64,000 nt of DNA from Nitrosopumilus sp. (GTDB taxonomy: Archaea; Thermoproteota; Nitrososphaeria; Nitrososphaerales; Nitrosopumilaceae). The position numbers were made by a program, and so were the translations under genes. Position 1 is the stretch's first letter. The number at the start of each line of letters is the position of its first letter. The stretch is from positions 1,120,001-1,184,000 of the forward strand of contig CBDBLO010000002.1 of assembly GCA_965207075.1 (NCBI GenBank), written 5' to 3'. The notes under the pieces are model-generated. The model had not been told where the DNA came from, made no database searches, and saw nothing but the letters and a program-made list of their open reading frames with translations. Of this stretch, positions 7,833-63,892 are shown in pieces.

Positions 7833-9134
7833 ATGAAAATCACTAGGGAGGAGTTCGAGGAGACGGCCGACGCGACGGCGGGCGACCCCATGGAACTGTT
7901 CATGCAGGGGATCAGGTCAGAGGAGACAAAGCGCTATTATGTGCACATGTTGCGACTCATACTGTGTGAAGTGCTGGGGGACGTACTGGACGGCACGTTT
8001 GAGCAGCGCGCCGGGCAGATCGTGCGCATGGCGCGGGACGACCCTGACCGGACGCTGTCCCTGATGCTGCGAATCTCCGCAAAACTGAGGGAGCGCACGG
8101 AGCTGCCGCACGACAACCCGGACTACATCAACCCGACGAGCATCAAGAACTACTTCAGTCCGATCAAAAAGCTGTTCAATATGAACAACGCCCCGATGCA
8201 GTGGAAGCGCGTGCACTGCACGTGGCCCGAAAGAGACAACGTGCCCGAGTCCAGGGGGTGGGAACGGCACGAGATACAGCGGATGCTCGGGTACGCCAGG
8301 AATAAGAGGGACAGGGCGCTCATACTGGTGGCCGCCAGCTCCGGCATGAGGGCGGGGGGCTTTGAGTCGCTCAGGTGGTCCGACCTCAGGCCCGTATACG
8401 TGGACGGCCGGGGGGAGCCTGCGTTTGGCGACGACCGCAGCGTGGATGGGGGCGGGGGAAGCCCGCCGGCCTGCGCCATGCTCACCGTATACGGCCGCAC
8501 CAGCGCGAGCTACCCGGCGTTCATCACGCCGGAGGCGTACGCCGCCCTGATGGAGTACCGAGAGGTGCTGACGCGCCAGTCGGGCAGACGCCCCAAGCCT
8601 GACGAGTCGATGTTCGTGGTAGTGGGGAAGCGCGGGGCGGCATCAAACGCCATGACGCAGACGGTCAGGGGGAGCATAACCCGGATAGTCACTATCACCG
8701 GACTGCGTGACAGTGGGCGCAGGGGACGGAGGTCGTATGACGTGCCAATCATGAACGGCTTCCGCCGCTTCTGGAACAAGGCGTGCAAGGAGTCGCTCTC
8801 CAAGGACTCGGCCCTGTCATCATTGATCAAGAAGGAGTACATGATGGGACATGTGGGCCTGGTGAACCTTGACAGGAACTATTTCAAGACGCACGTACTG
8901 GAACTGGCCGCGGAATACATGCAGTCCGTACCGGCCCTGACCATAGGGGACGAGGAGCGCCTCCGGCTGGCGAACGCCGCGCAGGCCGCCAGGATAGGGA
9001 GCATGCAGGACGAGCGGGACGCCGAGATCGCCGGGCTCAAGCGCACCGTAGCGGAGCTCACGCGCAGGATGGAGGGGTTCATGCGGGACGGCGGAGACGG
9101 CGGAAGCAAAGGCGGCGCGGGGATCGGAGGGTGA
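7833..9134 (+). CDS. Tyrosine recombinase/integrase
   Basis: ASSGMR (catalytic R), MNGFRRFW (HxxR equivalent), MMGH...LDRNY (H, catalytic Y); C-terminal coiled coil; TATA-like TTTTATA at ~7798. Confidence 0.9.
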   Translation: MKITREEFEETADATAGDPMELFMQGIRSEETKRYYVHMLRLILCEVLGDVLDGTFEQRAGQIVRMARDDPDRTLSLMLRISAKLRERTELPHDNPDYINPTSIKNYFSPIKKLFNMNNAPMQWKRVHCTWPERDNVPESRGWERHEIQRMLGYARNKRDRALILVAASSGMRAGGFESLRWSDLRPVYVDGRGEPAFGDDRSVDGGGGSPPACAMLTVYGRTSASYPAFITPEAYAALMEYREVLTRQSGRRPKPDESMFVVVGKRGAASNAMTQTVRGSITRIVTITGLRDSGRRGRRSYDVPIMNGFRRFWNKACKESLSKDSALSSLIKKEYMMGHVGLVNLDRNYFKTHVLELAAEYMQSVPALTIGDEERLRLANAAQAARIGSMQDERDAEIAGLKRTVAELTRRMEGFMRDGGDGGSKGGAGIGG

Positions 9135-9634
9135 GTCCGATACCGCCGACCGAGAACCGCCACGTTAAATTGAAACGAAGGCAGCTTGCGCATGGCACCG
9201 TCTCCGCCCTCCCACGCCACGACGGCCGCCGACCGGGGGTACGCGGATTGACACCCTCCACCAGGGACGCCGCCTGCCTTTGCCACTCCCCCGCTCCCCC
9301 TGCTGCAGACACGCCGTACGACACGCGCGTAATCGCGGAGTCGGAGTGCTCCATCTGCGGCTCGCGCGCCGCCGCCATGATGCCGGCCGCATACATCGGG
9401 TGTTTCCTGTCCGACGGCCGCGGTCCGCAGGGGCGCTCCGTGCGCGTGTGGTGCGGTTCGTGCGGGCTGCACCGCTACGAGTCGGTGGGCGGCGTGCACA
9501 GGCTTGGGTGTCCCGTACCGTTTTCAGGCGCCCGGCCATTCAGGCAGCCGGCGGGCGCGCCGTCGCCATTCCTTCCGCTTCCACCCGCTCCAGACCCTAT
9601 GCACGTCCGCCACCGCGCGGTGAGCGCGCAATGA
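9131..9634 (+). CDS. Hypothetical Zn-ribbon protein
   Basis: CSICG...CGSCG pair; GTGA overlap with integrase stop. Confidence 0.45.
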   Translation: MSPIPPTENRHVKLKRRQLAHGTVSALPRHDGRRPGVRGLTPSTRDAACLCHSPAPPAADTPYDTRVIAESECSICGSRAAAMMPAAYIGCFLSDGRGPQGRSVRVWCGSCGLHRYESVGGVHRLGCPVPFSGARPFRQPAGAPSPFLPLPPAPDPMHVRHRAVSAQ

Positions 9635-9945
9635 CCGGCTCCAACAAAGGTGGTAACTCTGTCTGCATCCGCTGCGGCTGCCGCGTGCCGGACGCCCGTC
9701 TCAACGCCGACGGTGTGTGCGCCGGCTGCGTCCGCGCGATGTTCTCCAGCGGGATCAGGCGCGCGTTCCGCAACCTCGACGACATAGACGAGATAGCCCG
9801 CGGCGTGCACCTCGATTGGACCATCTACACGCGAGACGAGACCGACGGCATACTCGCGAGCACCAAGAAAATCCGCACCCACTTGGGCAAGCTCAACCGC
9901 ATGGGAGGGAGCGGAAACTCCCGCACCCGCCGCTCCGCGGGTTAA
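9631..9945 (+). CDS. Small Zn-finger protein
   Basis: MTGSNKGGNSVCIRCG...VCAGC; ATGA overlap. Confidence 0.6.
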   Translation: MTGSNKGGNSVCIRCGCRVPDARLNADGVCAGCVRAMFSSGIRRAFRNLDDIDEIARGVHLDWTIYTRDETDGILASTKKIRTHLGKLNRMGGSGNSRTRRSAG

Positions 9946-9969
9946 AAGCAACACGCTGCCCTTGCGTTC

Positions 9970-10221
9970 ATGGACAAGACCGTCGAACTCATGACGCCCC
10001 GCGGGGCCGCCCTCCTGGCTCTGCGCGACGAGGCCAAGGAACTGGTCAGCGCCATTGACATCATAGAGGACTGGGGGTGGGTCGCGGGCCGGGACGACAG
10101 CGAGCGGCTTGACGAAAGCATCACGGGCACGGAGTCTGCCATGCACAAGTACCTGGAGACGCGTCCGTCGGACGCGGACGGCGCAAAGGGGCCGACAGAA
10201 TCCGGCCGCCAAGAGAGCTAA
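9970..10221 (+). CDS. Hypothetical acidic helical protein
   Basis: 83-aa ORF, TTAAAA about 22 nt upstream. Confidence 0.55.
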   Translation: MDKTVELMTPRGAALLALRDEAKELVSAIDIIEDWGWVAGRDDSERLDESITGTESAMHKYLETRPSDADGAKGPTESGRQES

Positions 10222-10222
10222 T

Positions 10223-10266
10223 AATAACCTAACATTTATAAATAATAGGTTGTATGACATATCATG
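10223..10266 (+). promoter_or_regulatory. Promoter copy A: TATA box flanked by inverted repeat AACCTA/TAGGTT
   Basis: AATAACCTAACATTTATAAAT is 20/21 identical to 24347-24367, with the same spacing to ATG. Confidence 0.75.
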
Positions 10267-10435: not shown

Positions 10436-11167
10436 ATGATGCCAGCTGGTTCCGGAGCAAATGCAGTGGATGTCCCGCGCGGGCCCAAGCCGAGCGCCGA
10501 TATTATGCGCAAGCATGATGAGGCTGGGGACAAGAATGAGATCGACTCCATTTTCTGCGAGGTCTGCGACGGCGAGATAAGGACGACTGATGTGCGGAAG
10601 CCCGGACTGACCGTCGAGGAGTACGCCAAGGAGCCGCACGTCGTGGTGAACCGCATGGGCCATGACGGATATTCCGTGTCGATCAGGTGCCGGCACGCGT
10701 CCTGTGACGCGGGGGTGGTGCCAAGTTGGCAATTCACCGAAGAGTTCCACAGGAACGTAATCTGGCCGATAGACCGGCATACGCTCCCGACGTGCCGGAT
10801 GTGTGGTTATAACACGCCCGACTTCCGGAAGTTTACAGCCCACATGGAGTCGGAGCATGGCATTACCGTCGCCGAGAGGACTCCCGAGAAGACTTCGGAG
10901 ACGCGCACCGTCAGGCGGTGCCGGAAATGCGGGCTCCGGCTCGGACGCGAGGTCGAGCTGCCCGAGGGGTTCGCGGTGTTATGCGCCGCGTGCATCAGGC
11001 TCGTGGGCAAGGGCCTGCCGGACGCGCCGTTTGGCATTGCCCATGAATGCGAATGTGGAGACACCCTGGACGAACACGAGTACGTGGAAGACGAGAGCGA
11101 TGCCCCGTCCCCGTGCAATGAGTGCGGCTGCGAGGACTGGCGCGAGAAGAAAAAGGAGGAACCGTGA
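10436..11167 (+). CDS. Multi-Zn-finger protein including a C2H2-like finger
   Basis: CEVC, CRMCG...HMESEH, CRKCG...CAAC, CECG..H..CNECGC; TTTTAT upstream. Confidence 0.7.
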   Translation: MMPAGSGANAVDVPRGPKPSADIMRKHDEAGDKNEIDSIFCEVCDGEIRTTDVRKPGLTVEEYAKEPHVVVNRMGHDGYSVSIRCRHASCDAGVVPSWQFTEEFHRNVIWPIDRHTLPTCRMCGYNTPDFRKFTAHMESEHGITVAERTPEKTSETRTVRRCRKCGLRLGREVELPEGFAVLCAACIRLVGKGLPDAPFGIAHECECGDTLDEHEYVEDESDAPSPCNECGCEDWREKKKEEP

Positions 11168-11219: not shown

Positions 11220-12080
11220 ATGGCGCCGGCGGCAACGACAAAGACAATGGCGCCAGCCGCGTCTAGGCAGATACAGTGCCACAAGTGCGGCCGGAACATG
11301 AGGAGCCGGCTGCTTGCAAACGGCGAGACCAAGCGCCACTACTGCGAGGTGTGCGCAAAGGGCAACCGTCTGTGCGAGGTGCGCTACCACTGGGACAAGC
11401 ACGCCAACGGCCTGTGCGGCAGGGACAAGAAGGCATGCGCATACTGCGGGAGCGGACTCAAACTCGTATGCGACCCAGACGACCGTGACATCGGGCGCAT
11501 GATGCAGGAGGACGAGGAGGACGAGCCCTGCAGCTATCTGGAAATCCTGTGCCCCCTGTGGTTTGAGAAGCTGCACCGCGGCATGCTCGAGGACCTCGCC
11601 ACGTTCGACAAGGACGTCGTCTCGGAGGCCTGGGGCTGGAGCGACAAGTTCCGCGAGGTGGGCGGAGAGTATTACTGCGAGGACTGCATCTCGTACAGCT
11701 ACATGCTCTTCAACGGGTCGTACCAGTTCGGCACCACGTGGGTGGAGATAAAGCTAGTCGAGACCGCAGAGTACTTTGCCCAACACTACTTTGAGATGCA
11801 CGATGGGCGAGAGGGCGAGAGGGGTCGCGCCAGGTACCTCGACGCGTGCCACGGCATGGCCTCGGCGCTGAACGGCCTTGAGACGTTCTCATTCCGCTGC
11901 AGGGAGCTGAAATACGACGACAGGAAGGACGACCTGCTGCCGTTGCTGGGGGAGCTGCGCAGGCGCTTCGTAAATGACATGCACTACAAGGCGAACGCCG
12001 CGTACGACAAGGAGGAATACGACGGCGTCATGGAACACTTCGACGGCGTCGAGAAGAACATCAGGGAGGGTTTCAAATGA
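11220..12080 (+). CDS. Cys-rich hypothetical protein
   Basis: CHKCG, CEVC, CAYCG, CEDC then a helical C-terminus. Confidence 0.7.
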   Translation: MAPAATTKTMAPAASRQIQCHKCGRNMRSRLLANGETKRHYCEVCAKGNRLCEVRYHWDKHANGLCGRDKKACAYCGSGLKLVCDPDDRDIGRMMQEDEEDEPCSYLEILCPLWFEKLHRGMLEDLATFDKDVVSEAWGWSDKFREVGGEYYCEDCISYSYMLFNGSYQFGTTWVEIKLVETAEYFAQHYFEMHDGREGERGRARYLDACHGMASALNGLETFSFRCRELKYDDRKDDLLPLLGELRRRFVNDMHYKANAAYDKEEYDGVMEHFDGVEKNIREGFK

Positions 12081-12343
12081 TCCTCGAACGGGCTGATTGG
12101 AGCGACGCGACCAACAACGGACAGCTTAAGGGGACTGCTGCAAAGCGGGTCAGGCCGCGCGACAGATGTCCCGGGTGCGGGCATGCGTCCGACGCGTGGC
12201 TGGCCAGGCGCGTGCTGGAGACCGACGGCAATGAGTTTCACGACGGCGACGTATACGACTCCATGGTCTGCCGCAGCTGCGGTTACACGCTGCCGTTCGT
12301 GACGGCGACCAGGGAGATCGGCGGCAAGGAGGAGCCCGCCTGA
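12077..12343 (+). CDS. Zn-ribbon protein
   Basis: CPGCG...CRSCG; ATGA overlap. Confidence 0.7.
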   Translation: MILERADWSDATNNGQLKGTAAKRVRPRDRCPGCGHASDAWLARRVLETDGNEFHDGDVYDSMVCRSCGYTLPFVTATREIGGKEEPA

Positions 12344-12618
12344 TGCCCTGCCGCGGCGTCTGCAGGCGCCCCGAATACGCGTTCCGTCCAACGTTCCGGG
12401 TCAGGGGCCGGCAGTCGCTGTATGCGTGCGGCGCCAAGATGTGCATTCCGTGCGCGGCGTGGCTGGAGTGGGACGGGCGGCTCTGCCCCTGCTGCAGCAA
12501 GCAGCTGCGCACGCGTCCACGCAACGCTAGATTCAAGCGCAAATGGATGGAGAAAGTACTCGTGGCGGCCACCGTGCAAGCCGGAGGCGCCCCGGCCAAG
12601 AGGGAGGGGCGGGACTGA
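12343..12618 (+). CDS. Small Cys-rich protein of a family I recall from thaumarchaeal genomes (CxGxC...CxxC...CPCC..LRT.PR)
   Basis: MPCRGVC...MCIPC..WLEWDG..CPCC..QLRTRPRN; paralogues at 57347-57957. Confidence 0.75.
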   Translation: MPCRGVCRRPEYAFRPTFRVRGRQSLYACGAKMCIPCAAWLEWDGRLCPCCSKQLRTRPRNARFKRKWMEKVLVAATVQAGGAPAKREGRD

Positions 12619-14477: not shown

Positions 14478-14876
14478 GTGAGCCAGGTACTCCCCCCCGC
14501 CCCCGCGACGACCCCGCGCGATACGTGCGGTACCTGCGGACATTCCACGTACGAGCACATGTCCGGCTCCCCGGTCTACCTGATGTACCACGCCGGCACC
14601 ACGTATGTCCTGCGGTCCGTCGACCCGGGGAACGTGGAGCGCGACGTGCGCAGCCTGTATGGCCGGTGGGGGATGGAGTCGACAGACAGCACGACCGTCA
14701 CCATAATCGAGGTACCGGCCCGCCGGATAAACCGCAGTGCGATGCACGCCGACCATTGGACGCGCTGGATAGATGACGGCAGGCGCACGGAGGCGGAACT
14801 AGTGACGGATACAGGGATACGCATTTCAGAGCAGGTCATACGCGGCAGGCCCGTGTACGGCACGGAGGAGGGCTGA
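14478..14876 (+). CDS. Hypothetical protein with CxxCGH motif
   Basis: TCGTCGHSTYEH; GGAGGTG SD-like sequence upstream. Confidence 0.6.
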   Translation: MSQVLPPAPATTPRDTCGTCGHSTYEHMSGSPVYLMYHAGTTYVLRSVDPGNVERDVRSLYGRWGMESTDSTTVTIIEVPARRINRSAMHADHWTRWIDDGRRTEAELVTDTGIRISEQVIRGRPVYGTEEG

Positions 14877-14882: not shown

Positions 14883-15032
14883 ATGGTTGACGTATACCCT
14901 CGCGCGTCCGCCCCGGACGACAGTCATTGCGCCGGATGCGGACACCGTGAAAATGGCCACCTCATAGATGCCTGTCTGCATGACGGATGTGATTGCAACG
15001 GGTTCAGCCCCAGCGACGGAGGCTCTACCTGA
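14883..15032 (+). CDS. 49-aa Cys/His microprotein (not in ORF track)
   Basis: MVDVYPRASAPDDSHCAGCGHRENGHLIDACLHDGCDCNGFSPSDGGST; shares CxxCGH...CLHDGCxCxxF with 19270. Confidence 0.7.
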   Translation: MVDVYPRASAPDDSHCAGCGHRENGHLIDACLHDGCDCNGFSPSDGGST

Positions 15033-17181: not shown

Positions 17182-17444
17182 TGGCAAACAAACACCCCTC
17201 ACGAACTGTGGACATTCCAGGTCTCGGGCGGGCAGAAATTGACAAGGAGATGGTGTCAGTCATCACCGAGCTGAACCGGCTCGGCTTCCGCACGTTGAAG
17301 TGCTGTCAGGGCGACGACGAGTGGATACGCTACATAGAGTTTGACATGGGCGCCGTCGAATGCGAGTTTGAGGATGCAGAGATTGATGATGATGGCAGGC
17401 ACAAGCCCAAACTGCGGATCAGCGTAAAGGGGGCGGCGGCCTAA
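17181..17444 (+). CDS. Small protein resembling the TYW3 N-terminal / phage-type ID..I..LN..G..T..CCxG motif
   Basis: IDKEMVSVITELNRLGFRTLKCCQG...YIEF. Confidence 0.55.
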   Translation: MANKHPSRTVDIPGLGRAEIDKEMVSVITELNRLGFRTLKCCQGDDEWIRYIEFDMGAVECEFEDAEIDDDGRHKPKLRISVKGAAA

Positions 17445-17587
17445 TGTCCTGCGACATGTGCGGACACAGCCACGAGGGCCAGACGTGTTCCTTTGCGGCG
17501 TGGGTGGACGTGGTGGATGGCGTCGGCCACGTAAGCAAGGAGTACATCCGATGCCAGTGCCTAAACTACGAGGAGGCGAAGGACTGA
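17444..17587 (+). CDS. 47-aa Cys/His microprotein (not in ORF track)
   Basis: MSCDMCGHSHEGQTCSFAAWVDVVDGVGHVSKEYIRCQCLNYEEAKD; coupled at both ends. Confidence 0.7.
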   Translation: MSCDMCGHSHEGQTCSFAAWVDVVDGVGHVSKEYIRCQCLNYEEAKD

Positions 17588-17796
17588 TGGGCGGTGTAAT
17601 GGTATCGGACTCGATTTCGCGCGACGAGCCGTGCTCGGACTGCGGGCATCCGAAATACGACCACGACGACCACAGGTGCGGGCAGTGCCCGTGCACGAAC
17701 ACCTTCACGTGCAGTGGCTGCGGGCACGCCTGGTTCCACCACCACTTTTCAAACTGCGAGGGCGGCTCCGACTGCCCGTGCGACAGGAGGCCCTGA
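17587..17796 (+). CDS. Double CxxCGH...H...C..CPC microprotein
   Basis: CSDCGHPKYDH..CGQCPC and CSGCGH..HH..C...CPC. Confidence 0.7.
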   Translation: MGGVMVSDSISRDEPCSDCGHPKYDHDDHRCGQCPCTNTFTCSGCGHAWFHHHFSNCEGGSDCPCDRRP

Positions 17797-17798: not shown

Positions 17799-18077
17799 AT
17801 GTTTGAACAGAACCCGCAGTACGCCGGCGGCATACGCACCCTCAAGTGCACCGAGGACACGATCAAGAGGTGGATGCGCCGCCGCGGGGCGGTTCGCATA
17901 TGCAACGTCTGCAAAAAGACAATAGACCTGGGGCAGTGGTATACCGTAGAGCACGTCGGCGTCATGGACCCGATCTGGTTCGTCAAGCACGTCGAGTGCA
18001 TGACCGCGCCGAGGGACTGCGGCGACAGCTCGCTCAGGGAGATCAGGGAGCACATCAGGGAGGCCGACGCCCGGTGA
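17799..18077 (+). CDS. PARP/LIM-like CxxC...HxxC Zn-finger protein
   Basis: ICNVCKKTI..G..Y...KHVEC. Confidence 0.65.
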   Translation: MFEQNPQYAGGIRTLKCTEDTIKRWMRRRGAVRICNVCKKTIDLGQWYTVEHVGVMDPIWFVKHVECMTAPRDCGDSSLREIREHIREADAR

Positions 18078-18241
18078 CATGCAAGAACTGCGAACACGAC
18101 GCGGACGACCACGCAAGCGAGGCCGTGGTGGCCGGCGGCGGGTCGCCGTGCACTGCCGGCGTCACTTCGGCCGACGACGACCTCGGGGGCGGCATGCAGA
18201 CGGTGAGTAGGTGTCCGTGCAAAGGATGGGAGGCGGCCTAG
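18074..18241 (+). CDS. Cys/His microprotein
   Basis: MTCKNCEHDADDH...PC...RCPC; GTGA overlap. Confidence 0.65.
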   Translation: MTCKNCEHDADDHASEAVVAGGGSPCTAGVTSADDDLGGGMQTVSRCPCKGWEAA

Positions 18242-18652
18242 ATGGGCGATCCGAAGTGCGGCGGGCAGATCGTCATGAAGGACTGCAAGCGCCACGGCCG
18301 CAAGCACACGGGCACCATGTGCCCGCAGTGCATACCGTCATGCATCGGCGAGCGGCCGCCGGACGTCCGGACCGAGCATGAATGGAAGAAGACCCCACAC
18401 AAGAACCAGAAGCTGAAGTGCGCCAAATGCGGCGCCATAGTGGTCGTGCGCGGGCTGCTGTTTGACATAACCCGGCTGCCGCGCGGGCTCGTCTCCGAGA
18501 AGCTCCCGGCCTGCAGTCCGGGCCGCATGCACGAGTGGGACGTGCTAGACAACAAGGATTCGTCGTTCACCGTTGGGTGCCCGCGCTGCGGCAAGTGCGT
18601 CAGGATTGACGGGTTCGGCTTTGAGATCACCAAGGGGTGGAGGCATGAGTAA
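18242..18652 (+). CDS. Multi-Zn-ribbon protein
   Basis: CPQC, HEW..CAKCG, HEW..CPRCG. Confidence 0.65.
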   Translation: MGDPKCGGQIVMKDCKRHGRKHTGTMCPQCIPSCIGERPPDVRTEHEWKKTPHKNQKLKCAKCGAIVVVRGLLFDITRLPRGLVSEKLPACSPGRMHEWDVLDNKDSSFTVGCPRCGKCVRIDGFGFEITKGWRHE

Positions 18653-18842: not shown

Positions 18843-19270
18843 TGCCTGCAGACGCCGCCAGTCTACATCCACATGGGGCCGAAAACCATGGAAGCTCTCA
18901 AAAAATGAGCGCGGAACCATACGACTACGCATCATGCGAGTTCCGCCGCGTCAAGGACAACGACAGTCATAACTACGATGCGAAGGTGAGGTGCCTCGGC
19001 GTGAAGTACTCCTGCTTCGGGGACATGCCAAGCTTTGACGGCACGCCGGCATGCGGCGGCAACTGCCCGCAGAAGGGCACGTGGCGCGGCCCAAAGTGCG
19101 GGGCCGTCATGCCCGACCGGGACGCCAGAAACCACGCATACCACGTGCACGACGTTACGTCGTGGGAAGTATCAGCTACGTCCGGAGGCTTCATGCACGG
19201 CGGCGGCGCCCCCAGTTCAAGCTGGGAAGACCAGCCGCCGCCGAAGAACATGTTGGAGGCGTTCACGTGA
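18842..19270 (+). CDS. Cys-rich protein with C2H2-like end
   Basis: C...KCG...HAYHVH; coupled. Confidence 0.6.
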   Translation: MPADAASLHPHGAENHGSSQKMSAEPYDYASCEFRRVKDNDSHNYDAKVRCLGVKYSCFGDMPSFDGTPACGGNCPQKGTWRGPKCGAVMPDRDARNHAYHVHDVTSWEVSATSGGFMHGGGAPSSSWEDQPPPKNMLEAFT

Positions 19271-19581
19271 TGGCAAATGAAAAGAGATGCGCCGCCTGCG
19301 GCCACCTGCTGCGGTGGCACCGCACGGCGGACGGCGACTGCCTCCACGACGGCTGCGCGTGCGAGAAATTCACCCCCGAGCAGCGCATCGACAGGGGGCG
19401 CAACGGGCGCAGAAAGTACCCCGTCGTGCCTCCCGAGGAGCTCGCCAAGTACTGCGGGGTCTGCCGCAACGGACAGCACTCCAGCTGCACGGGCAGGCGC
19501 ATCAAGCCGGGACACCCGCGAAGCCCCAAGTCCCCGAAGGTGCCGTGCGAGTGCCCTCGGCACGGAGGGGGGAGCGCCTGA
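19270..19581 (+). CDS. Two-finger Cys/His protein
   Basis: CAACGH..WH..CLHDGCAC and CGVC..GQH..C...CECPRH. Confidence 0.7.
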   Translation: MANEKRCAACGHLLRWHRTADGDCLHDGCACEKFTPEQRIDRGRNGRRKYPVVPPEELAKYCGVCRNGQHSSCTGRRIKPGHPRSPKSPKVPCECPRHGGGSA

Positions 19582-19769
19582 TGTCCCTGATCAAGCAGTA
19601 CATCAGGTGGCGCATGCGCAACGCCGGCAAGTACTGGAGGTGTGACTTGTGCGGCGCCGAGTCCGGCACTGACGGTGACGTGGTTGCCAAGGCGGCCGAG
19701 CACACGCGCTTCCACGAGACCGGCGGGATTGAACGCCCGCGCGGCGCGCACACGGAGGCCCGGGCATGA
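19581..19769 (+). CDS. C2H2-like microprotein
   Basis: WRCDLCG...AEHTRFH. Confidence 0.6.
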   Translation: MSLIKQYIRWRMRNAGKYWRCDLCGAESGTDGDVVAKAAEHTRFHETGGIERPRGAHTEARA

Positions 19770-19954
19770 TGGGCTTCGGAGGATACACCGGCAGGTACGG
19801 GCAGATCAGCATGATGCCCTACGAGGTGCGGAGGCGCCTGACGTCCGCCTGTTACAGCGGTCACCACAACAAGTGCGGCGGCGGCAACAACGCCCAGCGC
19901 CTGGATCCGTGCCCGTGCCCGTGCCACGGGCCGGAGGAGGCGACCGCGGCTTGA
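19766..19954 (+). CDS. Cys/His microprotein
   Basis: SAC..GHH.KC...CPCPCH, same pattern as the C-terminal finger of 19270. Confidence 0.65.
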   Translation: MMGFGGYTGRYGQISMMPYEVRRRLTSACYSGHHNKCGGGNNAQRLDPCPCPCHGPEEATAA

Positions 19955-20157
19955 CCTCCCACACAACGGCACTGCGGGACGCCGCATGCGTCGTGTGCGG
20001 AAAGCCGTTCAACGCGGACGGCACGGGCAACGACATATGCGTGTCATGTTGGTCGCACCCCGGTGACGCGTGCGCCGGGTGTGGGCTTGCGCGCAACGAC
20101 CACTTTCATCCGGACGGCGCGGGCGGCTGCCCGGGGTTCAGGGAGCCGGCAAAATAG
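19951..20157 (+). CDS. Two-finger Cys/His microprotein
   Basis: TTGA overlap; CVVCG...CVSC...CAGCG..DH...CPGF. Confidence 0.6.
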   Translation: MTSHTTALRDAACVVCGKPFNADGTGNDICVSCWSHPGDACAGCGLARNDHFHPDGAGGCPGFREPAK

Positions 20158-20501: not shown

Positions 20502-20864
20502 ATGAGCTTGGAACGCGGCGGCCGGATTGCCGTGTTCGGCGACGGCGGTCACCCCACGTCCGCCGCGCCGACGACCGCGCCGATTCAGTCCCCCACCAAG
20601 CAGGACCCGTTCGCCATGCCCTCCGAGCAGGAGCTTGTCAGGTGCATCATCGAGTCCACCCGCGAGGTCGACGAACGCTCCGCCCAGGTGTCCGACATGC
20701 TGAAGGACTTGGCAAGCCCCGGTGCCGGACGGGACGGGCCCGCCACGGTCCGCGCCGAAAGCGACATCCATGCCGCGTACACGCGGCTGGCCGACGCCCG
20801 GCTCGCCCAGAGGCGGGCGGCCGTGAGGTTGTGGAGGGCGCGCAACGACGCGGGTGCGCGGTGA
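20502..20864 (+). CDS. Hypothetical helical protein
   Basis: Co-oriented ORF with GGAGG upstream. Confidence 0.45.
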   Translation: MSLERGGRIAVFGDGGHPTSAAPTTAPIQSPTKQDPFAMPSEQELVRCIIESTREVDERSAQVSDMLKDLASPGAGRDGPATVRAESDIHAAYTRLADARLAQRRAAVRLWRARNDAGAR

Positions 20865-20937
20865 AAAGCGCGCCTGCAGCAGCTGCCCTGAAGTTGGGGA
20901 GGATCCGTTTTTTATACATCGCCCGCGAGCGATCGGC

Positions 20938-21102
20938 ATGGGTTCTCAATGCTATGTGTGTGGCAGTGAAATACACGACGGGCTGTTTGAAGGCGAGTCG
21001 GCAATAAGATGTAGTGCGTGTGGCAACTCTGTCCACGACAGTCCGAATTGCCGCGGCCTGAAAGACGGCAGCGTCGTGTGCGGCATATGCTCCGCAAGAT
21101 GA
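20938..21102 (+). CDS. 54-aa C4HC3 (PHD-finger-like) microprotein
   Basis: C-x2-C-x16-C-x2-C-x4-H-x4-C-x9-C-x2-C; own TTTTTATA box upstream. Confidence 0.7.
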   Translation: MGSQCYVCGSEIHDGLFEGESAIRCSACGNSVHDSPNCRGLKDGSVVCGICSAR

Positions 21103-25061: not shown

Positions 25062-25280
25062 TCAACCGGGTATCCGGCATCCGTCGTGGTTGTCCTCCAA
25101 GTGGAACCTGCAGAACAGCTTGCCGCACCTCCCGCACTTCATAGCCTCGTGGCTGGTGCCGGAACAGCCCTGTTCCTGGCAAGGGGGGGATGAGTGTAGC
25201 CCATGTTCCCTGTGTTCCGGGCAGTAGGCGAGCATGTCAATCGTCGGCTTGCTGCAGCCCTCGTAGGAACACGTGCTCAT
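25062..25280 (-). CDS. AN1-type Zn-finger-like microprotein
   Basis: CSYEGC...YCPEH then C-x4-C-x9-C-x2-C-x4-C-x2-H-x4-H-x2-C; TTTTAT 21 nt upstream. Confidence 0.7.
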   Translation of the reverse strand: MSTCSYEGCSKPTIDMLAYCPEHREHGLHSSPPCQEQGCSGTSHEAMKCGRCGKLFCRFHLEDNHDGCRIPG

Positions 25281-25352
25281 GGGCGCCATGCCGCGCCCCC
25301 CATAAAAGACGCGCATGCCGGGGGCTTTTATGCGGATGCGGGCCTGCAGGGC

Positions 25353-25469
25353 ATGTCTGAGAACAACCACAGCAGCGGCCCGTGCCCCACGTGCAGGCGC
25401 GACTTTGCGCAGCACACGGACGCCGAGGTCATAGAGTGCGCGCGCGCCCTCGTGGCGGCCGTGCACTGA
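25353..25469 (+). CDS. 38-aa CxxC..H..C microprotein
   Basis: MSENNHSSGPCPTCRRDFAQHTDAEVIECARALVAAVH; TTTTAT 21 nt upstream, back-to-back with the previous promoter. Confidence 0.65.
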   Translation: MSENNHSSGPCPTCRRDFAQHTDAEVIECARALVAAVH

Positions 25470-27363: not shown

Positions 27364-27413
27364 CCGCGCGGTCGGAAAAAACGCGCCTTTAAGCCGCTCC
27401 CAGCTTGGATTTC

Positions 27414-47622: not shown

Positions 47623-47754
47623 TCATGCGTTTTCACACACGCCGCACCTAGAAGCTCCGTTGGTCAGGCAGAGGTCGCACCTGGGCTCGTTGCACCTGCC
47701 GCAGAACTGCGTGTCGCAATCACTGCATATCATCTCGTTGCACGTATCGCACAT
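47623..47754 (-). CDS. 43-aa 5xCxxC microprotein (not in ORF track)
   Basis: MCDTCNEMICSDCDTQFCGRCNEPRCDLCLTNGASRCGVCENA; may be 5'-truncated. Confidence 0.55.
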   Translation of the reverse strand: MCDTCNEMICSDCDTQFCGRCNEPRCDLCLTNGASRCGVCENA

Positions 47755-47811
47755 GTGCACCGTGTCCGATTCCCGGTCGCAGGAGCGGCTTCACGCGGCC
47801 TGACGGTTAGT

Positions 47812-48840: not shown

Positions 48841-49099
48841 GGCTGGATGGTGCCGCACGGATGCTATTAGTCTTGGGCTCCTCGAATACTTTCCTTTTAA
48901 CCGGACTCGTTCATACGCGACATGAACTGCAAGTCCTGCGGCAGGGAACTGCGCGACGGCCCGGAGCGCATGGTCAACGTGCTGACCGGGAAGCCTGTGC
49001 CGTTCTGCAACGAACTGTGCAGCGAGGCGTACCACGGGTAGTCCCGGGCGCCCCTGGACGGGCGACATGATTTTAAGACGCACCGCGTTGTACCTAGTG

Positions 49100-57346: not shown

Positions 57347-57691
57347 TCAGGAAGCGGTTCCCGCCGGCACGGGCTGCAGCCCGCCGTCAGGTGAATCGTC
57401 TGCCGCCGCCGCGCCCTCCCGTCCCGGCGCGGCAATGCTACCACTATCGCTCATTTCCGCATGAGTACCGGGCGTGTCATAAAAGGCGCCGGCCGCGCGA
57501 CGCAGCCGGCCCCTGATACCGCGCCTGGCAAAGCGCACACGCTGCCTGCAGCAGGGGCACCTGCCCGTGGACGCCGCGGCGGCGGGGGACATCCACACGC
57601 TGCACGTGTTGCAGCGGCAGCGCTCGTCGTACGCCTGGCCGCTGGCGGGCCGGCGCACTACCAGCCTGGAGCATATCCCGCGGCAGCCCAT
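57347..57691 (-). CDS. Cys-rich protein, paralogue of 12343
   Basis: MGCRGIC...RCNTC..W...CPCC..RVR. Confidence 0.7.
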   Translation of the reverse strand: MGCRGICSRLVVRRPASGQAYDERCRCNTCSVWMSPAAAASTGRCPCCRQRVRFARRGIRGRLRRAAGAFYDTPGTHAEMSDSGSIAAPGREGAAAADDSPDGGLQPVPAGTAS

Positions 57692-57957
57692 CAGGACACC
57701 GCCCCCCGTTGACGTCTGGTCCTGGACGCGGTGGGTGATAGAGGTATGGGCACCCGCCTCAGCGGCGTGCTGCCGCGACTCCCGCCGCTACCCCTGTTAG
57801 CCCGCGCGCTGCGCCTGAGCGGCATGGCGCAGCAGGGGCAGTGCACACGGTCAAGTCCGAACCACGTGGAGCACGTGCGGCAGTAGCCGAAGCCCAGGGA
57901 ATACATGGCGCCGAACCTCTTTGGCACGGCATGCCGCGCGCAGGTCCCTAGGCACAT
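57691..57957 (-). CDS. Cys-rich protein, paralogue of 12343
   Basis: MCLGTC...YCRTC..W...CPCC..PLR. Confidence 0.7.
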   Translation of the reverse strand: MCLGTCARHAVPKRFGAMYSLGFGYCRTCSTWFGLDRVHCPCCAMPLRRSARANRGSGGSRGSTPLRRVPIPLSPTASRTRRQRGAVS

Positions 57958-62280: not shown

Positions 62281-62317
62281 GAATGGTGTCTTTTATGCAT
62301 CCCGCGGCACGGCGCCC

Positions 62318-62500
62318 ATGGGGGATGAGACCTGCGACATATGCCTGCTGCACTACCCGTGCAAGCACGGCAATGATTCTATGAACAGCCCGCCCCGCGC
62401 AATGTGCACGTGCGGACACGAGAACGTAAACCACGGCAAGTCCACGCTGGTGAGCCCCGGCTGCGACAAGTGCGGGTGCGATAGGTTCCGCCCGGCGTGA
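62318..62500 (+). CDS. 60-aa Cys/His microprotein
   Basis: CDIC..H.PC.H; CTCGH...H...CDKCGC..F; TTTTAT 21 nt upstream. Confidence 0.7.
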   Translation: MGDETCDICLLHYPCKHGNDSMNSPPRAMCTCGHENVNHGKSTLVSPGCDKCGCDRFRPA

Positions 62501-62569
62501 TACGCCAGGGACGGTCGGATGAAGTCGGACTGAGTCGATTAAAGAAAGCTTTAACGTTTTTTTCACTCG

Positions 62570-62595
62570 TTAAAGAAAAACGGCTTTTTCTTTAA
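62570..62595. terminator. AT-rich perfect inverted repeat (terminator or operator)
   Basis: TTAAAGAAAAA-cggc-TTTTTCTTTAA; related TTAAAG-aaag-CTTTAA at 62539-62554. Confidence 0.5.
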
Positions 62596-62729
62596 TGTGG
62601 CGGCTGAGCGGTCAGCACGACCGCTGCACGAGTACGACACGCGTGCCGCGGGCTGAATAAAAGAGCATGGCGACCGGCCGCGGGCCAGCCGGGCCGTCAG
62701 CCTTAATACCAAAACGGCCGGTTGGTGGT

Positions 62730-63683
62730 GTGCAGAAAATTCCGGACGAAGGCGGGAGGAACCCCGGGAAGGACGGCCAGCGCAAAAAGGCCGCCGGGGG
62801 ACTCGACGCGTCCAGGCTCGCGGGTATGATCAGGCTTGAGAGGCCTGACATACACTACAAGTCGAGCGCCAGCATGGCAGAGGTGCCGGACGGCTCAGTT
62901 CACCTCGTGGTGACGTCGCCCCCGTACAACGTGGGCAAGCAGTATGGGAACGGGCACGACGACAGCATGCCGCTTGACGAGTACCTGGCGGGACTGGACG
63001 ACACGTGGCGCGAGTGCGTGCGCGTGCTGTGCGGCGGCGGCAGGCTGGCCTTGAACGTGGCCGACGCGTGGCGCTCACCCTACGTGCCGCTGCACTCGTT
63101 CATAACTCAGCGGCTGCTCGACATGGGACTGCTCATGCGCGGCGTCATATACTGGAACAAGGGCGCCGGCGCCGGCGCCTCGACGGCCTGGGGCTCGTGG
63201 CTGTCCGCCTCTAACCCGGTACTGCGCGACGTGGGCGAATACATACTGGTGTTCTCCAAGGCCTCGTACGGACTGCAGAGCCGCAACGGCATCTCCACCA
63301 TCACGTCCAGCGAGTTCACCGAGTACACGCGGTCGTTGTGGACGTTCCCCCCGGCCTCGGCCAAGAGGGAGGGGCACCCCGCGCCATTTCCTGAGGAGCT
63401 GCCGTCCCGGCTGATCAAACTGTACACGTTTCTGGGCGACACGGTGCTGGACCCGTTCATTGGTTCCGGCACGACGGCAAGGGCCGCCATGCTGTTGGGC
63501 AGGAAGTGCATAGGGTATGAGGCCAACGAGGGGTACCGTCCGCTCATAGAGAAGAAGACCGGCGGCGTGTCGGCAATCCGCATAGATCCCGACAGCTTCC
63601 GCGCCAAATCTACCGCCGGCGCCCGCGGGAAGCCCGCGCGGCTTGAAGACCTCTATCCGCCGTCAGGGGACACCAAAACCTAG
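62730..63683 (+). CDS. Site-specific DNA methyltransferase, beta class (SPPY; N4-C or N6-A)
   Basis: LVVTSPPY, RVL..GG, EYILVF, HPAPFP, VLDPFIGSGTT. Confidence 0.92.
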   Translation: MQKIPDEGGRNPGKDGQRKKAAGGLDASRLAGMIRLERPDIHYKSSASMAEVPDGSVHLVVTSPPYNVGKQYGNGHDDSMPLDEYLAGLDDTWRECVRVLCGGGRLALNVADAWRSPYVPLHSFITQRLLDMGLLMRGVIYWNKGAGAGASTAWGSWLSASNPVLRDVGEYILVFSKASYGLQSRNGISTITSSEFTEYTRSLWTFPPASAKREGHPAPFPEELPSRLIKLYTFLGDTVLDPFIGSGTTARAAMLLGRKCIGYEANEGYRPLIEKKTGGVSAIRIDPDSFRAKSTAGARGKPARLEDLYPPSGDTKT

Positions 63684-63724
63684 ACTGACGCGTGGGGGGG
63701 GGGGGCGCTAGGGAGAGCTCCTGG

Positions 63725-63892
63725 TCAGAGTCCCAGTCCGGCGTCCCTGGCGGCGTCCTCGTCACGCTGCTCCTGCATGCCCCGTTCGTACTCGGAGCGC
63801 GGCATGCCGCACCTCCTGCAGTACTGCTCGCTTCCTTGGTACGAGTCGTCCCAGTCGTGCTCGACATCCATGTCCTCGCACTTGTTGCCCAC
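63725..63892 (-). CDS. 55-aa C..HDW..CxxC microprotein
   Basis: KC...HDW...YCRRCG; TTTTAT 21 nt upstream of GTG. Confidence 0.6.
   Translation of the reverse strand: MGNKCEDMDVEHDWDDSYQGSEQYCRRCGMPRSEYERGMQEQRDEDAARDAGLGL

Follow-up and report, generated by a model that had tools for sequence, protein, structure and literature searches.

Small, very diverse Cys/His proteins resembling zinc fingers (ZF-like) make up 80 of the 243 genes called in a ~151-kb insertion in a Nitrosopumilaceae genome, versus 93 of 1878 elsewhere, these counts being approximate because the genes were called with an in-house Markov model whose calls cover 80% of contig C2. The 80 proteins have a median length of 83 aa, and 32 of them are 70 aa or shorter. 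Their genes are exceptionally dense and element-specific, and they are real and under purifying selection. We tentatively explain the insertion as an integrative conjugative element (ICE) loaded with selectively maintained zinc miniproteins for establishment or counter-defence, a reading that we hold at slightly less than even confidence. The window, the whole 64,000-nt stretch analysed here, covers the first ~56 kb, i.e. the first third, of the insertion.

The insertion and its conjugative backbone

The insertion (C2:1,127,740-1,278,886) is an integrated mobile element in an AmoA-encoding archaeon. The site is empty in 6/6 same-genus relatives, in which the DRG GTPase gene directly adjoins homologues of C2:1278886 and C2:1279653, and this bears out the sequence-only reading of the region as an integrated element; the thaumarchaeal host that it named is likewise supported by AmoA, encoded in the host genome, and by integrase relatives from Nitrosopumilaceae, Cenarchaeum and Thaumarchaeota MAGs. 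Contigs from runs X1 and X2 span the left junction. At 7771-7780 there is a candidate 10-bp att core, CTATTGGATT, with a second copy at C2:1278668; in the windows searched, chance would be expected to give about 0.9 matches to such an att-type repeat, and the core is absent from the relatives' empty sites. The 151 kb may comprise several elements, in tandem or nested. The sole att candidate is this 10-bp repeat, which is attainable by chance.

The backbone of the integrated element is that of a thaumarchaeal ICE. It comprises an integrase, a VirD4/TraG-type ATPase, TadC/T2SS-F-type platform proteins (a T2SS-F match was found in the element), pilins and a PrimPol-helicase, in agreement with the published thaumarchaeal ICE gene set as far as it is given in the relevant part of PMC6563490. 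Neither a terminase nor an HK97 capsid was found in the genome. The landmarks in the window are:

7740..7832, no strand: junction at the left of the ~151-kb insertion, flanked by the genes for the DRG GTPase and the integrase
7833..9134 (+): tyrosine integrase, 433 aa; sub-threshold Pfam Phage_integrase match (22.3 bits, cut-off 27.1); PHROG integrase E 3.6e-9; 20 relatives in thaumarchaeal MAGs; paralogues adjoin tRNA genes elsewhere in the genome
12619..14403 (+): ResIII/DEAD-type helicase, 594 aa (Pfam)
27405..31442 (+): conjugation ATPase, 1345 aa, with VirD4/TraG-type coupling-protein domains (TrwB_AAD_bind, TraG-D_C and T4SS-DNA_transf, all above cut-off); paralogues in three other elements of the same genome
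54951..57275 (-): replication protein, 774 aa, with PrimPol, D5_N and DUF5906 helicase domains (Pfam)

Enrichment and selective maintenance of the small Cys/His genes

In the span 9131-63892, six-frame translation yields 30 ORFs of 30-200 aa with at least two CxxC motifs, against 3.9 ± 2.1 (maximum 9 in 60 runs) in second-order and 3.7 ± 2.0 (maximum 11 in 60 runs) in fifth-order Markov simulations of the same span, and against 2 in its reversed sequence. CxxC ORFs have a raw density of 0.49 per kb within the span versus 0.13 per kb over the remainder of contig C2. The enrichment lies far above chance (30 observed, about 4 simulated). After filtering by coding score, 90 of 255 candidates genome-wide fall in C2:1,120,000-1,240,000, where most 10-kb bins hold 5-19 of them (elsewhere mean 0.79, maximum 5), and among the 202 gene calls of C2:1,127,000-1,244,100 Cys accounts for 2.9% of residues, versus 1.05% elsewhere.

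The claim that this density is exceptional stands up to comparison with related loci. ZF-like genes number 0/35, 0/36 and 1/25 in three sister copies of the ICE within this genome, and their density at 20 other thaumarchaeal loci linked to an integrase is 0-0.31 per kb, versus 0.55 in the span and ~1.0 further on; the richness in ZF genes is therefore not a property of the backbone. The coordinates first given for the region end too soon, since its densest part lies beyond the 3' end of the window, in a 28-kb array (C2:1,206,886-1,235,200) in which 37 of 68 genes are ZF-like. Packing in this array is operon-like: 65/68 genes are on one strand, neighbouring genes share 1 or 4 nt at 28/61 same-strand junctions, and the median intergenic gap is -1, versus 84 elsewhere.

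A related element in one other species (G096) keeps 11 ZF genes with a pooled dN/dS of 0.37, a value that is the same for 21 other element genes. The dN/dS check suggested earlier thus revealed purifying selection. In the same 11 genes, Cys is kept at 85/87 positions versus 796/1044 (76%) for other residues (Fisher p 1e-7); nearly invariant Cys among diverging residues is the signature of structural zinc sites holding up minimal binding domains.

The insertion also contains a tRNA His/Thr/Cys cluster and a separate tRNA-Arg(GCG) gene, diverged from the host isoacceptors (62-75% identical). Per 1000 codons, the element and the rest of the genome have 29.5 versus 10.4 for Cys, 29.7 versus 20.9 for His and 37.0 versus 23.8 for Arg CGC/CGT; Thr-ACG is not enriched (24.7 versus 23.7), so a link to codon demand would fit three of the four tRNAs. 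A search of the related G096 element, which comes from a fragmented genome, did not recover the tRNA cluster.

Candidate genes and folds in the window

A strict non-overlapping gene set contains 22 ZF-like genes in the span. Among 40 hand-checked candidates, ~16 have an orthologue or database relative, ~13 more have a positive coding score only, and ~8 have neither a homologue nor a positive coding score. With ~29 candidates supported by coding or homology and 22 in the strict set, the earlier estimate of about 50 is too high. All 11 ORFs that had been named as lying below the ORF-track cut-off (14883, 17444, 32518, 36821, 36952, 38046, 38550, 39828, 41984, 47623 and 53646) do exist where they were placed, with paired Cys motifs, and of 10 microproteins that were looked up, 6 are called genes belonging to clusters of 2-4 members. 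Paralogues are present, as had been described, together with at least one decayed copy. The candidates are:

10505..11167 (+): Cys-rich protein, 220 aa, 15 Cys; coding score 18.8; 9/9 Cys kept in a partial G096 match
11247..12080 (+): Cys-rich protein, 277 aa, 15 Cys; coding score 72.9; no sequence relative found in PDB
12077..12343 (+): Zn-ribbon-like protein, 88 aa, CPGCGH...CRSCG; score 11.4
12343..12618 (+): Cys-rich protein, 91 aa, 8 Cys, CPCC end; 4 database relatives (72-76% identity); same family as 57347 and 57691; paralogues at C2:1221866 and C2:419442
14478..14876 (+): 132-aa protein, N-terminal CGTCGH..H; G096 orthologue 85% identical, dN/dS 0.30
14883..15032 (+): 49-aa single CGH-CxC module microprotein; module profile E 7.1e-5; coding score -13; AF2 model mean pLDDT 69.7; absent from the protein collection
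17444..17587 (+): 47-aa microprotein, 5 Cys, CDMCGH; score 4.0; called gene, cluster of 3
17587..17796 (+): 69-aa protein, two CGH-CxC modules, 10 Cys; G096 orthologue 77% identical, 10/10 Cys, dN/dS 0.28
17799..18077 (+): 92-aa protein, 5 Cys; score 24.5; partial G096 match at 86%
18074..18241 (+): 55-aa microprotein, 5 Cys; G096 orthologue 60% identical, 4/5 Cys, dN/dS 0.39
18242..18652 (+): 136-aa protein, 11 Cys; score 27-28; G096 orthologue 82% identical, 11/11 Cys, dN/dS 0.39; 3 database relatives; present in 2/101 genus genomes
19267..19581 (+): 104-aa protein, 10 Cys, N-terminal CGH-CxC module; G096 orthologue 84% identical, 10/10 Cys, dN/dS 0.28
19766..19954 (+): 62-aa protein, 5 Cys; score 7.0 only
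19993..20157 (+): 54-aa protein, 6 Cys; score 9.5 only
20854..21102 (+): 82-aa ORF, 9 Cys, doubtful or decaying; score -8.5; G096 counterpart has a stop, keeps 5/7 Cys
27244..27363 (+): 39-aa ORF, CxC...CxH (SWIM-like) motif; score 2.0; Pfam SWIM 13.6 bits
32518..32682 (+): 54-aa ORF, 9 Cys; score 0.4; no homologue found; absent from the protein collection
32755..32862 (-): 35-aa ORF, 4 Cys; G096 match 41% identical, 3/4 Cys kept
36821..36919 (-): 32-aa ORF, 4 Cys, unsupported; score -1.5; no homologue found; absent from the protein collection
36952..37083 (-): 43-aa Zn-ribbon-like microprotein; score 8.3; called gene, cluster of 4
38046..38165 (-): 39-aa microprotein, 4 Cys; score 8.2 only
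38281..38451 (-): 56-aa microprotein, paralogue of 38550 (46% identical); score 13.7
38550..38708 (-): 47-52-aa microprotein; score 10.4; called gene, cluster of 3
39828..39962 (-): 44-aa CPGCG...CKKCG microprotein; score 9.5; cluster of 4; phrog_17723 (function unknown) E 9.7e-6
41026..41346 (+): 106-aa protein, CGH-CxC module; module profile E 3.7e-10; score -4.4; near-identical representative P0018 in the library
41489..41671 (-): 60-aa protein, 11 Cys; G096 orthologue 70% identical, 11/11 Cys kept
41714..41899 (-): 61-aa protein, 12 Cys; called gene, cluster of 4; score 2.1
41984..42100 (+): 38-aa Zn-ribbon-like ORF; score 3.9 only
43949..44266 (-): 105-aa protein, 8 Cys; score 0.5 only
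47623..47760 (-): 45-aa ORF, 10 Cys; score 4.1 only; B-box 13.3 bits, below cut-off
48922..49041 (+): 39-aa ORF, 4 Cys; score 6.7 only
57347..57691 (-): 114-aa Cys-rich protein, CPCC family; score 0.5; distant paralogue at C2:1362313
57691..57957 (-): 88-aa Cys-rich ORF, CPCC family, doubtful; score -9.1; likeness to 12343 and 57347 by motif only
62318..62500 (+): 60-aa protein, 8 Cys, CGH-CxC module; module profile E 2.7e-12; close relative P0013 in the library

The ORF at 25062..25466 (-), read as AN1-like, belongs to the ~8 candidates with neither kind of support and is probably no gene (score -14.8; no AN1 match; its G096 match keeps 0/7 Cys).

Judged from their sequences, the 80 ZF-like proteins are probably single- or double-knuckle zinc-binding miniproteins. 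A recurrent module, CxxCGH..H..C..CxC, is present in several element proteins and matches no Pfam family, and any single Zn-ribbon Pfam family gives weak matches in only 2-5 of the 80. The SWIM, AN1, PHD, C2H2 and metallothionein types assigned earlier are motif readings only and are not supported: in Pfam SWIM reached 13.6 bits versus a 19.6 cut-off, AN1 gave no match, and for PHD and C2H2 no family lies above cut-off. Two structure models (pLDDT 69.7 and 61.6, low to moderate confidence) yielded no fold relative. Charge is mixed (31 acidic, 26 basic of the 80); no single binding mode is implied.

Proposed role of the arrays

We propose that the ICE backbone has taken on long arrays of very small genes, closely packed and mostly on a single strand, and that these are co-transcribed accessory or 'establishment' genes; the array layout suggests co-expression. 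Their products may act in establishment or counter-defence as small binding modules stabilised by zinc, with likely targets among host or rival-element macromolecules (restriction and other defence proteins, transcription factors, polymerase, nucleic acids), and such binding would help the element to settle in a new cell. The miniproteins would diversify as their genes are duplicated, diverge, are lost and are shuffled among related elements, and the element's tRNA-Cys, tRNA-His and tRNA-Arg(GCG) may serve the unusual codon demand of its proteome. An anti-defence, host-takeover or symbiont-host effector role is suggested by context, which for counter-defence includes ArdC-N (25.3 bits versus a 22.6 cut-off), LigT, a phage-type RNA ligase, NAMPT and type II or orphan methyltransferases. 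The metal-buffering idea is not supported. To our knowledge no oriT or relaxase has been described for archaeal ICEs; a 'leading region' is therefore not mappable here. In bacterial plasmids, counter-defence-type genes are grouped in one-strand leading-region islands, according to the relevant part of PMC11541004.

To call this an undescribed system is too strong, because Table 1 of PMC6563490, at least, already places small Zn-ribbon proteins among the most frequent families in integrated elements of thaumarchaea. The novelty lies in their scale and diversity here and in the link to tRNAs carried by the element: roughly one gene in three on a giant archaeal element encodes a small putative zinc-binding protein, and these proteins are very diverse.

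A 151-kb insertion with a conjugative backbone

In all six same-genus relatives compared, the DRG GTPase gene (window 6618-7739; unprefixed coordinates refer to the window, C2 to the contig) directly adjoins homologues of C2:1,278,886-1,279,617 and C2:1,279,653-1,281,653. This uninterrupted site indicates that the Nitrosopumilus sp. genome (G000) carries an insertion of ~151 kb (C2:1,127,740-1,278,886), running from window ~7740 to 95 kb past the window end. The sequence-only reading had placed an integrated element at 9131-63892 (hereafter the span); the empty site bears out the element and carries it far past those coordinates. The integrase at 7833-9134 reaches 22.3 bits in Pfam, under the 27.1 cut-off, and matches a PHROG integrase family at E 3.6e-9. 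The left junction shares no exact repeat of 14 bp or more with C2:1,180,000-1,270,000; the sole att candidate, 10 bp repeated at the two junctions, is compatible with chance and not present in the relatives' empty sites, and the 151 kb may be either one element or several in tandem. Contigs from two sequencing runs of two studies span the DRG-integrase junction with sequence identical to that of the window, and one of these runs may be the source sample. None of the listed runs that contain the stretch is recorded as RNA. On the host side, just outside the element, 5227-6009 on the minus strand encodes a repeat protein with AT-hook-like KRKPGRPAKK units.

The host genome comprises 2.23 Mb in two contigs at 60% GC. 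It encodes an archaeal AmoA, and relatives of the integrase lie at 20 of 20 loci in MAGs labelled Nitrosopumilaceae, Cenarchaeum, Nitrosopumilus or Thaumarchaeota; on these two grounds the thaumarchaeal origin assigned earlier is correct. A methanogen identity of the host was dropped, McrA being missing from the G000 genome.

The ICE-type genes include a 1345-aa VirD4/TraG-type coupling ATPase (TrwB_AAD_bind 38 bits against a cut-off of 20.5, TraG-D_C 32.3 against 22, T4SS-DNA_transf 22.1 against 20.1) and a T2SS-F membrane protein (50.2 bits against 25.2), together with putative pilins, a FlaI-like ATPase and a TFIIB-like gene recognised by eye from translations in C2:1,249,000-1,270,400. Pfam further identifies a PrimPol-D5-DUF5906 replication protein, a ResIII helicase, an Eco57I-type methylase and a NucS-like nuclease in the window, and ArdC-N, a PD-(D/E)XK nuclease, LigT, PRTase, HMG-CoA reductase, NAMPT and a phage-type RNA ligase beyond it; type II or orphan methyltransferases come from PADLOC and PHROGs, as does a ribonucleotide reductase, which is a second copy in addition to the host gene at C2:395,036. 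Genes for anti-restriction, RNA repair and NAD salvage are thus abundant in this neighbourhood. Four housekeeping-type genes, the ribonucleotide reductase, HMG-CoA reductase, LigT and a PfkB-like kinase, are duplicated in the insertion, with host copies elsewhere; the sites listed for them are C2:1,257,296-1,258,804, L003:8930-10060, L002:1839-2408 and window 23153-24085 (L002, L003 and L004 denote stretches of the insertion beyond the window). By eye from translations, the product of 59810-60646 looks Gp37/Gp68-like (DUF5131-type) and that of 61207-62280 ThiF/E1-like; the two lie beside a Cys/His microprotein gene and a DNA methyltransferase gene.

In the available part of a survey of thaumarchaeal ICEs (PMC6563490), these elements carry VirB4/VirD4, TadC, FlaI, pilins, TFIIB and PrimPol-S3H, and have a median size of 64 kb; an oriT or relaxase is not known from archaeal ICEs. 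The present insertion resembles them in its integrase, VirD4/TraG-type ATPase, TadC-type membrane protein, putative pilins and PrimPol-type replication protein, and in its chromosomal position with short or unclear att sites, but is well over twice the median size given there. G000 holds at least three further copies of the same conjugation backbone, at C2:~705,000-750,000, ~1,738,000-1,786,000 and ~1,905,000-1,950,000, with a TraG-like ATPase, T2SS-F, a ~1100-aa protein and pilin homologues; they offer a built-in control, and rearrangements could draw on them.

Density, arrangement and conservation of the miniprotein genes

DNA of 60% GC is rich in spurious ORFs (the 64-kb window contains 426 of at least 60 aa), and a coding model was therefore trained: a periodic fourth-order Markov model built from 972 long ORFs of the genome. 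Every ORF of at least 25 aa was scored with its best start, and a greedy non-overlapping set yielded 2121 genes covering 80% of contig C2; gene counts rest on this home-made caller and are approximate. Genes were termed ZF-like (small Cys/His putative zinc-binding miniproteins) if they encode at most 200 aa with at least two Cys/His pairs and at least four Cys. So defined, ZF-like genes make up 80 of the 243 called genes in the insertion as compared with 93 of 1878 elsewhere, and they are unevenly distributed along it. The set of 80 excludes ORFs with a coding score of 1.5 or less or overlapping a better-scoring ORF, a rule that drops plausible window genes at 12343, 14883, 32518, 41026, 57347 and 57691.

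ZF-like genes among called genes along the insertion
Window part of the insertion: 22 of 84
C2:1,184,000-1,206,886: 13 of 37
C2:1,206,886-1,235,200: 37 of 68 (1.31 per kb)
C2:1,235,200-1,278,886: 8 of 53

The enrichment is also evident by other counts. Six-frame ORFs of 25-150 aa with at least two CxxC occur at 0.49 per kb in the span and at 0.13 per kb in the rest of C2, and raw ZF ORFs reach 0.55 per kb in the span and ~1.0 per kb in L003 and L004, against 0-0.31 in 20 other integrase-linked thaumarchaeal loci; the earlier impression of an exceptional density therefore stands. Candidates with a positive coding score and at least two Cys/His pairs number 255 genome-wide, with 90 of them within C2:1,120,000-1,240,000, where most 10-kb bins hold 5-19 (elsewhere the mean is 0.79 and the maximum 5). 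The three sister backbones in G000 contain 0 of 35, 0 of 36 and 1 of 25 ZF-like genes, indicating that the miniproteins are not a property of the backbone. According to the same part of PMC6563490, the Zn-ribbon family arCOG08677 ranks among the 20 families found most often in thaumarchaeal integrated elements and totals 12 copies in the whole survey, whereas here dozens of Cys/His genes, one third of the gene content, lie in one element; four or five tRNA genes and the virus-like NAMPT, RNA ligase and ribonucleotide reductase further set it apart from the elements described there.

Some of these ORFs could be chance products of GC-rich DNA or antisense shadows, an explanation to which the 60% GC, the abundance of long ORFs and several negative coding scores lend some colour. 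One such shadow is probably the 'AN1-like' ORF at 25062-25466 on the minus strand, which scores -14.8 and whose G096 match (G096 is a related-species genome carrying a related element) keeps none of seven Cys. For the set as a whole chance is refuted and its probability negligible: the span contains 30 six-frame ORFs of 30-200 aa with at least two CxxC, as opposed to 3.9 +/- 2.1 (maximum 9) in second-order and 3.7 +/- 2.0 (maximum 11) in fifth-order Markov simulations (60 runs each) and two in the reversed sequence. Operon-like packing, relatives in other assemblies and the conservation of cysteines described below argue the same way. The figure of about 50 microproteins in the window was too high, the strict gene set having 22 in the span, although all 11 of the named ORFs below the earlier cut-off exist. 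When 40 window candidates were checked singly, ~16 had an orthologue or database relative, ~13 more a positive coding score only, and ~8 neither; chance may account for these ~8.

The densest array (C2:1,206,886-1,235,200) has 65 of its 68 genes on the minus strand, with a 1- or 4-nt overlap at 28 of 61 same-strand junctions and a median gap of -1 nt, compared with 84 nt for the remainder of the genome. ArdC-N is found 5.5 kb from the array, and methyltransferase fragments and NAMPT inside it. Tight one-strand arrays of tiny genes look viral, and the ZF-dense arrays, especially in C2:1,184,000-1,235,200, might hold the early genes of a large virus, or of a virus-like element, that sits within the ICE or has merged with it; the tRNA genes, HNH endonucleases, NAMPT, phage-type RNA ligase, LigT and second ribonucleotide reductase, all typical of large viruses, and a thymidylate kinase recognised by eye from translation would fit such an origin. 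We regard it as improbable, given that Terminase_6N (PF03237) and HK97 capsid (PF05065) have no match in the whole genome, that no structural or packaging family is found among the 25 listed of 63 matched PHROG families, that two array proteins have no relatives in IMG/VR, and that the ICE genes for T2SS-F and a 1141-aa protein sit inside ZF arrays in both G000 and G096.

Among 101 genomes of the genus sampled, G096 is the one other that has relatives of both a window ZF gene and an array ZF gene. Contigs C112, C69 and C50 of G096 correspond to parts of the element in shortened and rearranged form, and C69 carries 0.83 raw ZF ORFs per kb. At C112 (L041) 370-2830, left of the integrase, lies an inverted homologue of the pilus locus C2:1,267,502-1,271,158, which in G000 is near the far end of the insertion, and the arrangement of the element ends differs between the two genomes. 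For 11 ZF genes with G096 orthologues (at least 50% identity and 60% coverage) the pooled dN/dS is 0.37 (345 non-synonymous and 229 synonymous differences), the same value as for 21 other element genes, which answers in the affirmative the earlier call for a test of purifying selection. Within these pairs 85 of 87 Cys and 45 of 53 His are kept, compared with 796 of 1044 other residues (Fisher p 1e-7); the counterpart of 41489-41671 is 70% identical and keeps 11 of 11 Cys. Of ten microproteins looked up by exact sequence, six are called genes that cluster with sequences from other assemblies (2-4 members per cluster). For a 136-aa protein, JGI metagenomes yielded no relatives.

Birth and death of copies, postulated earlier from paralogues and decayed copies, is visible in two places: the G096 copy of 20854-21102 has a stop and lost cysteines, and in a related contig from sequencing run X7, a 344-bp skip from 15632 to 15977 removes one member of a tandem paralogue pair. 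The tandem paralogues occupy window 15319-15660 (113 aa) and 15657-16004 (115 aa).

X7 is labelled 'sponge metagenome' and holds diverged copies of the region, relatives are labelled Cenarchaeum or Nitrosopumilaceae, and the element encodes a pilus/secretion-type apparatus, all of which could suit symbiosis effectors delivered to or acting on an animal host of the archaeon. Such a function seems very unlikely: none of the 80 proteins has a long hydrophobic stretch for a signal or anchor, no eukaryote-type domain exceeds its Pfam cut-off, and the element is found in only 2 of the 101 genus genomes searched, so that it is not a general symbiont trait.

Protein types and the CGH-CxC module

The 80 ZF-like proteins have a median length of 83 aa, 32 of them being at most 70 aa. 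CxxC-x8-30-CxxC is present in 48, CPxCG in 11 and C2H2-like spacing in five; 35 have only 4-5 Cys and 46 at least three Cys/His pairs; 31 are acidic and 26 basic (pI > 8.5). BLAST clusters few of them, the biggest ZF families having 3-4 members. At E <= 0.01 Pfam assigns no more than five of the 80 to any one Zn-ribbon family, with weak and generic matches (best E 3.5e-4; Zn_ribbon_3, Zn_ribbon_8, DZR and others), two to HNH and one to PIN, and PHROGs give three HNH, two endonuclease VII and two 'Lar-like' matches. The SWIM, AN1 and PHD labels given by the sequence-only reading, and the B-box type, fail Pfam cut-offs; in a scan of ten proteins SWIM reached 13.6 of the 19.6 needed, B-box 13.3 of 24.1, Prok-RING 14.7 of 29.1 and zf-C3HC4_2 13.3 of 27, with AN1 giving no match. 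The two Lar-like proteins, which match phrog_5558 ('Lar-like restriction alleviation') at E 2.6e-9 and were not among the ten scanned singly, are a weak lead to a putative restriction-alleviation role; Pfam Lar_restr_allev has no match in the genome.

A recurrent module, C-x1-3-CGH-x3-5-H...C...CxC-xx-[FYW], stands out. Under a strict pattern the genome has 12 copies, and the insertion accounts for 11 of these; it also contains 20 of 33 occurrences of CxxCGH alone. A profile built from 11 module copies finds 11 matches in G000, all in the insertion, and at most three in any of 300 other genomes of the family; 69 of 301 family genomes (one being the unpublished genome G196) have at least one match, mostly a single weak one in a ~200-aa frame. 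Searched against 1.84 billion representative proteins, the profile matches 37 at E <= 1e-3 (best E 5.7e-8), several with 2-6 tandem modules. One representative (P0012, 552 aa) combines six tandem CGH-CxC modules with a C-terminal dual-specificity phosphatase domain (PF22784, 39.5 bits), a fusion hinting that elsewhere the module may mediate targeting or binding. The module is not represented by any Pfam family, and its profile has no related chain among PDB sequences (best E 0.023). An AF2 model of a 49-aa CGH-CxC protein (pLDDT 69.7) has its best PDB match at E 4.8, and one of the 136-aa protein (pLDDT 61.6; the other four models below 47) nothing better than E 0.17 with TM < 0.4; in the ESM Atlas the best score for 41714-41899 was 0.89, below a usable level. 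The string 'CXXCGH' was not found in the open-access literature text.

Two biochemical functions bear directly on these compositions. Many of the Cys-rich proteins might be miniature beta-beta-alpha-Me/HNH (PacI-like) nucleases for homing or inter-element conflict, as proposed for combinatorial Cys-rich proteins in a hypervariable region of Asgard 'Opia' viruses in the accessible text of PMC11529989. HNH is matched by two of the 80 in Pfam (best E 4.9e-11) and by up to three in PHROGs, and the 46 proteins with at least three Cys/His pairs could have two Zn sites. Such a role is quite improbable for the set, as at least 77 of 80 are without an HNH match, 32 of 80 (at most 70 aa) are too small for a nuclease, and five of five larger Cys-rich proteins have no relative among PDB sequences, PacI included (nothing below E 0.15). 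The other function, metal buffering by a metallothionein-like system, had been offered as one of two explanations and is brought to mind by very Cys-dense members at 41489 (11 of 60 residues), 41714 (12 of 61) and 47623 (10 of 45). It is hardly credible for proteins of which 48 of 80 show the classical structural spacing and 35 have only 4-5 Cys, whose sequences are highly diverse, and whose setting is a mobile element among DNA-transaction and anti-restriction genes with no metal transporter or sensor among the Pfam matches.

Small Zn-finger and Zn-ribbon proteins are already known on archaeal viruses and integrated elements. The well-studied one-domain C(P)XCG zinc-finger micro-proteins of Haloferax volcanii are, in the available portions of PMC6562870, PMC10716476 and PMC11241148, chromosomal and number 43-49 per genome. 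The present proteins share with them very small size, two Cys pairs, lengths often of at most 70 aa and one (here predicted) Zn site as the main structural element, but there are 80 in 151 kb of one mobile element; the C(P)XCG type is delimited by at most 70 aa and two C(P)XCG motifs, while here 32 of 80 are that short and only 11 have any CPxCG. Opia viruses carry up to six small Cys-rich PacI-type HNH-like proteins per genome, as far as the accessible text of PMC11529989 goes; in both systems an archaeal mobile element encodes small Cys-rich proteins in runs, with double Zn sites predicted for them and sets that differ between close genomes, but here there are dozens, mostly shorter, with HNH similarity in only 2-3 of 80.

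Element tRNAs and a proposed role for the arrays

Aragorn and Rfam locate a tight tRNA-His(GTG)/Thr(CGT)/Cys(GCA) cluster with 2-3-nt spacers at C2:1,186,525-1,186,747 (L002:2525-2747), and, also in the insertion, a tRNA-Arg(GCG) at C2:1,216,192 (L003:12192-12268) and a tRNA-Met at C2:1,256,130. Elsewhere the host encodes a tRNA-His, -Thr(CGT), -Cys and -Arg(GCG) of its own, and the element genes are 62-75% identical to these (His 52/77, Thr 50/77, Cys 47/76, Arg 58/77). A 10-kb DNA query did not find the cluster in G096, a genome in 140 contigs. Four overlapping 'tRNA-???' predictions of aragorn at C2:712,737-713,009, with four-base anticodons, fall in a PAEA-repeat ORF and are most likely false.

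Codons per 1000 in the element and in the rest of the genome
Cys: element 29.5, rest 10.4
His: element 29.7, rest 20.9
Arg CGC/CGT: element 37.0, rest 23.8
Thr ACG: element 24.7, rest 23.7

Large viruses carry tRNA genes matching their own codon use. The element is similar in that its tRNAs are divergent relative to those of the host, with three of the four reading codons that it over-uses; it differs in that the carrier looks conjugative and the matched amino acids include the metal ligands Cys and His. The element tRNAs may thus serve its Cys/His-rich proteome.

Real genes with strongly constrained cysteines lie in operon-like arrays that have expanded specifically on this element. We consider it very probable that the set is one of genuine zinc-binding proteins carried by an ICE. 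Their main role may perhaps be counter-defence or takeover rather than self-regulation, to which we give somewhat less than even odds. In bacterial plasmid leading regions, as presented in the available part of PMC11541004, ssDNA transfer involves an oriT, a relaxase and Frpo promoters, and small genes, most of them uncharacterised, cluster on one strand next to genes for methyltransferases and anti-restriction proteins; the array, with 65 of 68 genes on one strand and such genes in and near it, matches this organisation. The oriT, relaxase and Frpo promoters are neither known nor detectable in archaeal ICEs, and the word 'zinc' occurs 0 times in the main text of PMC11541004. By analogy with these islands and with the Opia proteins (PMC11529989, in the text accessible), the products would be minimal zinc-stabilised binding modules that serve a giant ICE as accessory or establishment factors, and their targets could be macromolecules of the host or of rival elements.

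Alternatively, the miniproteins might mainly be the element's own regulators, Zn-finger DNA/RNA-binding factors timing transcription, replication or excision. Small regulatory Zn-finger proteins are documented, with Brz of Halobacterium and the C2H2 protein AFV1p06 of an archaeal virus as models (PMC2253796 and PMC3541406, in the parts available); 26 of 80 are basic, and CopG/RHH-like and TFIIB-like genes were recognised by eye on the element. This is rather unlikely as the main explanation: 80 proteins for 243 genes are out of proportion, sister ICEs of the same backbone need none or one, 31 of 80 are acidic, and the rapid turnover of gene content between G000 and G096 would be unusual for a core regulatory circuit.

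Taken together, we propose, as a possible but in its entirety doubtful reading, that the arrays are the archaeal equivalent of the anti-defence islands of plasmids, forming a rapidly evolving collection of dozens of zinc-stabilised binders, each of which would neutralise or redirect a different host or rival-element protein, expressed polycistronically when the giant conjugative element enters a new cell and served by its own tRNA-Cys, -His and -Arg, with CxxCGH-x4-H...C...CxC as an undescribed zinc-binding domain. To our knowledge, almost nothing is known about establishment and counter-defence of archaeal conjugative elements, and very few archaeal anti-defence proteins have been identified. 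We found no report in the open-access literature of an element with dozens of such proteins, of the CGH-CxC module or of a tRNA-Cys/-His link; the supplement of PMC6563490 may list similar elements.

The ~80 selectively maintained miniproteins, several with orthologues, provide a compact and testable candidate set for inhibitors or regulators and at least one uncatalogued zinc-binding module. If they prove to be ordinary regulators, the element would still document an extreme small-protein content in archaeal mobile elements. The tRNA set of an element can mirror the ligand residues of its proteome, and a single insertion can make up ~7% of the 2.2-Mb genome of a symbiont-type ammonia oxidiser.
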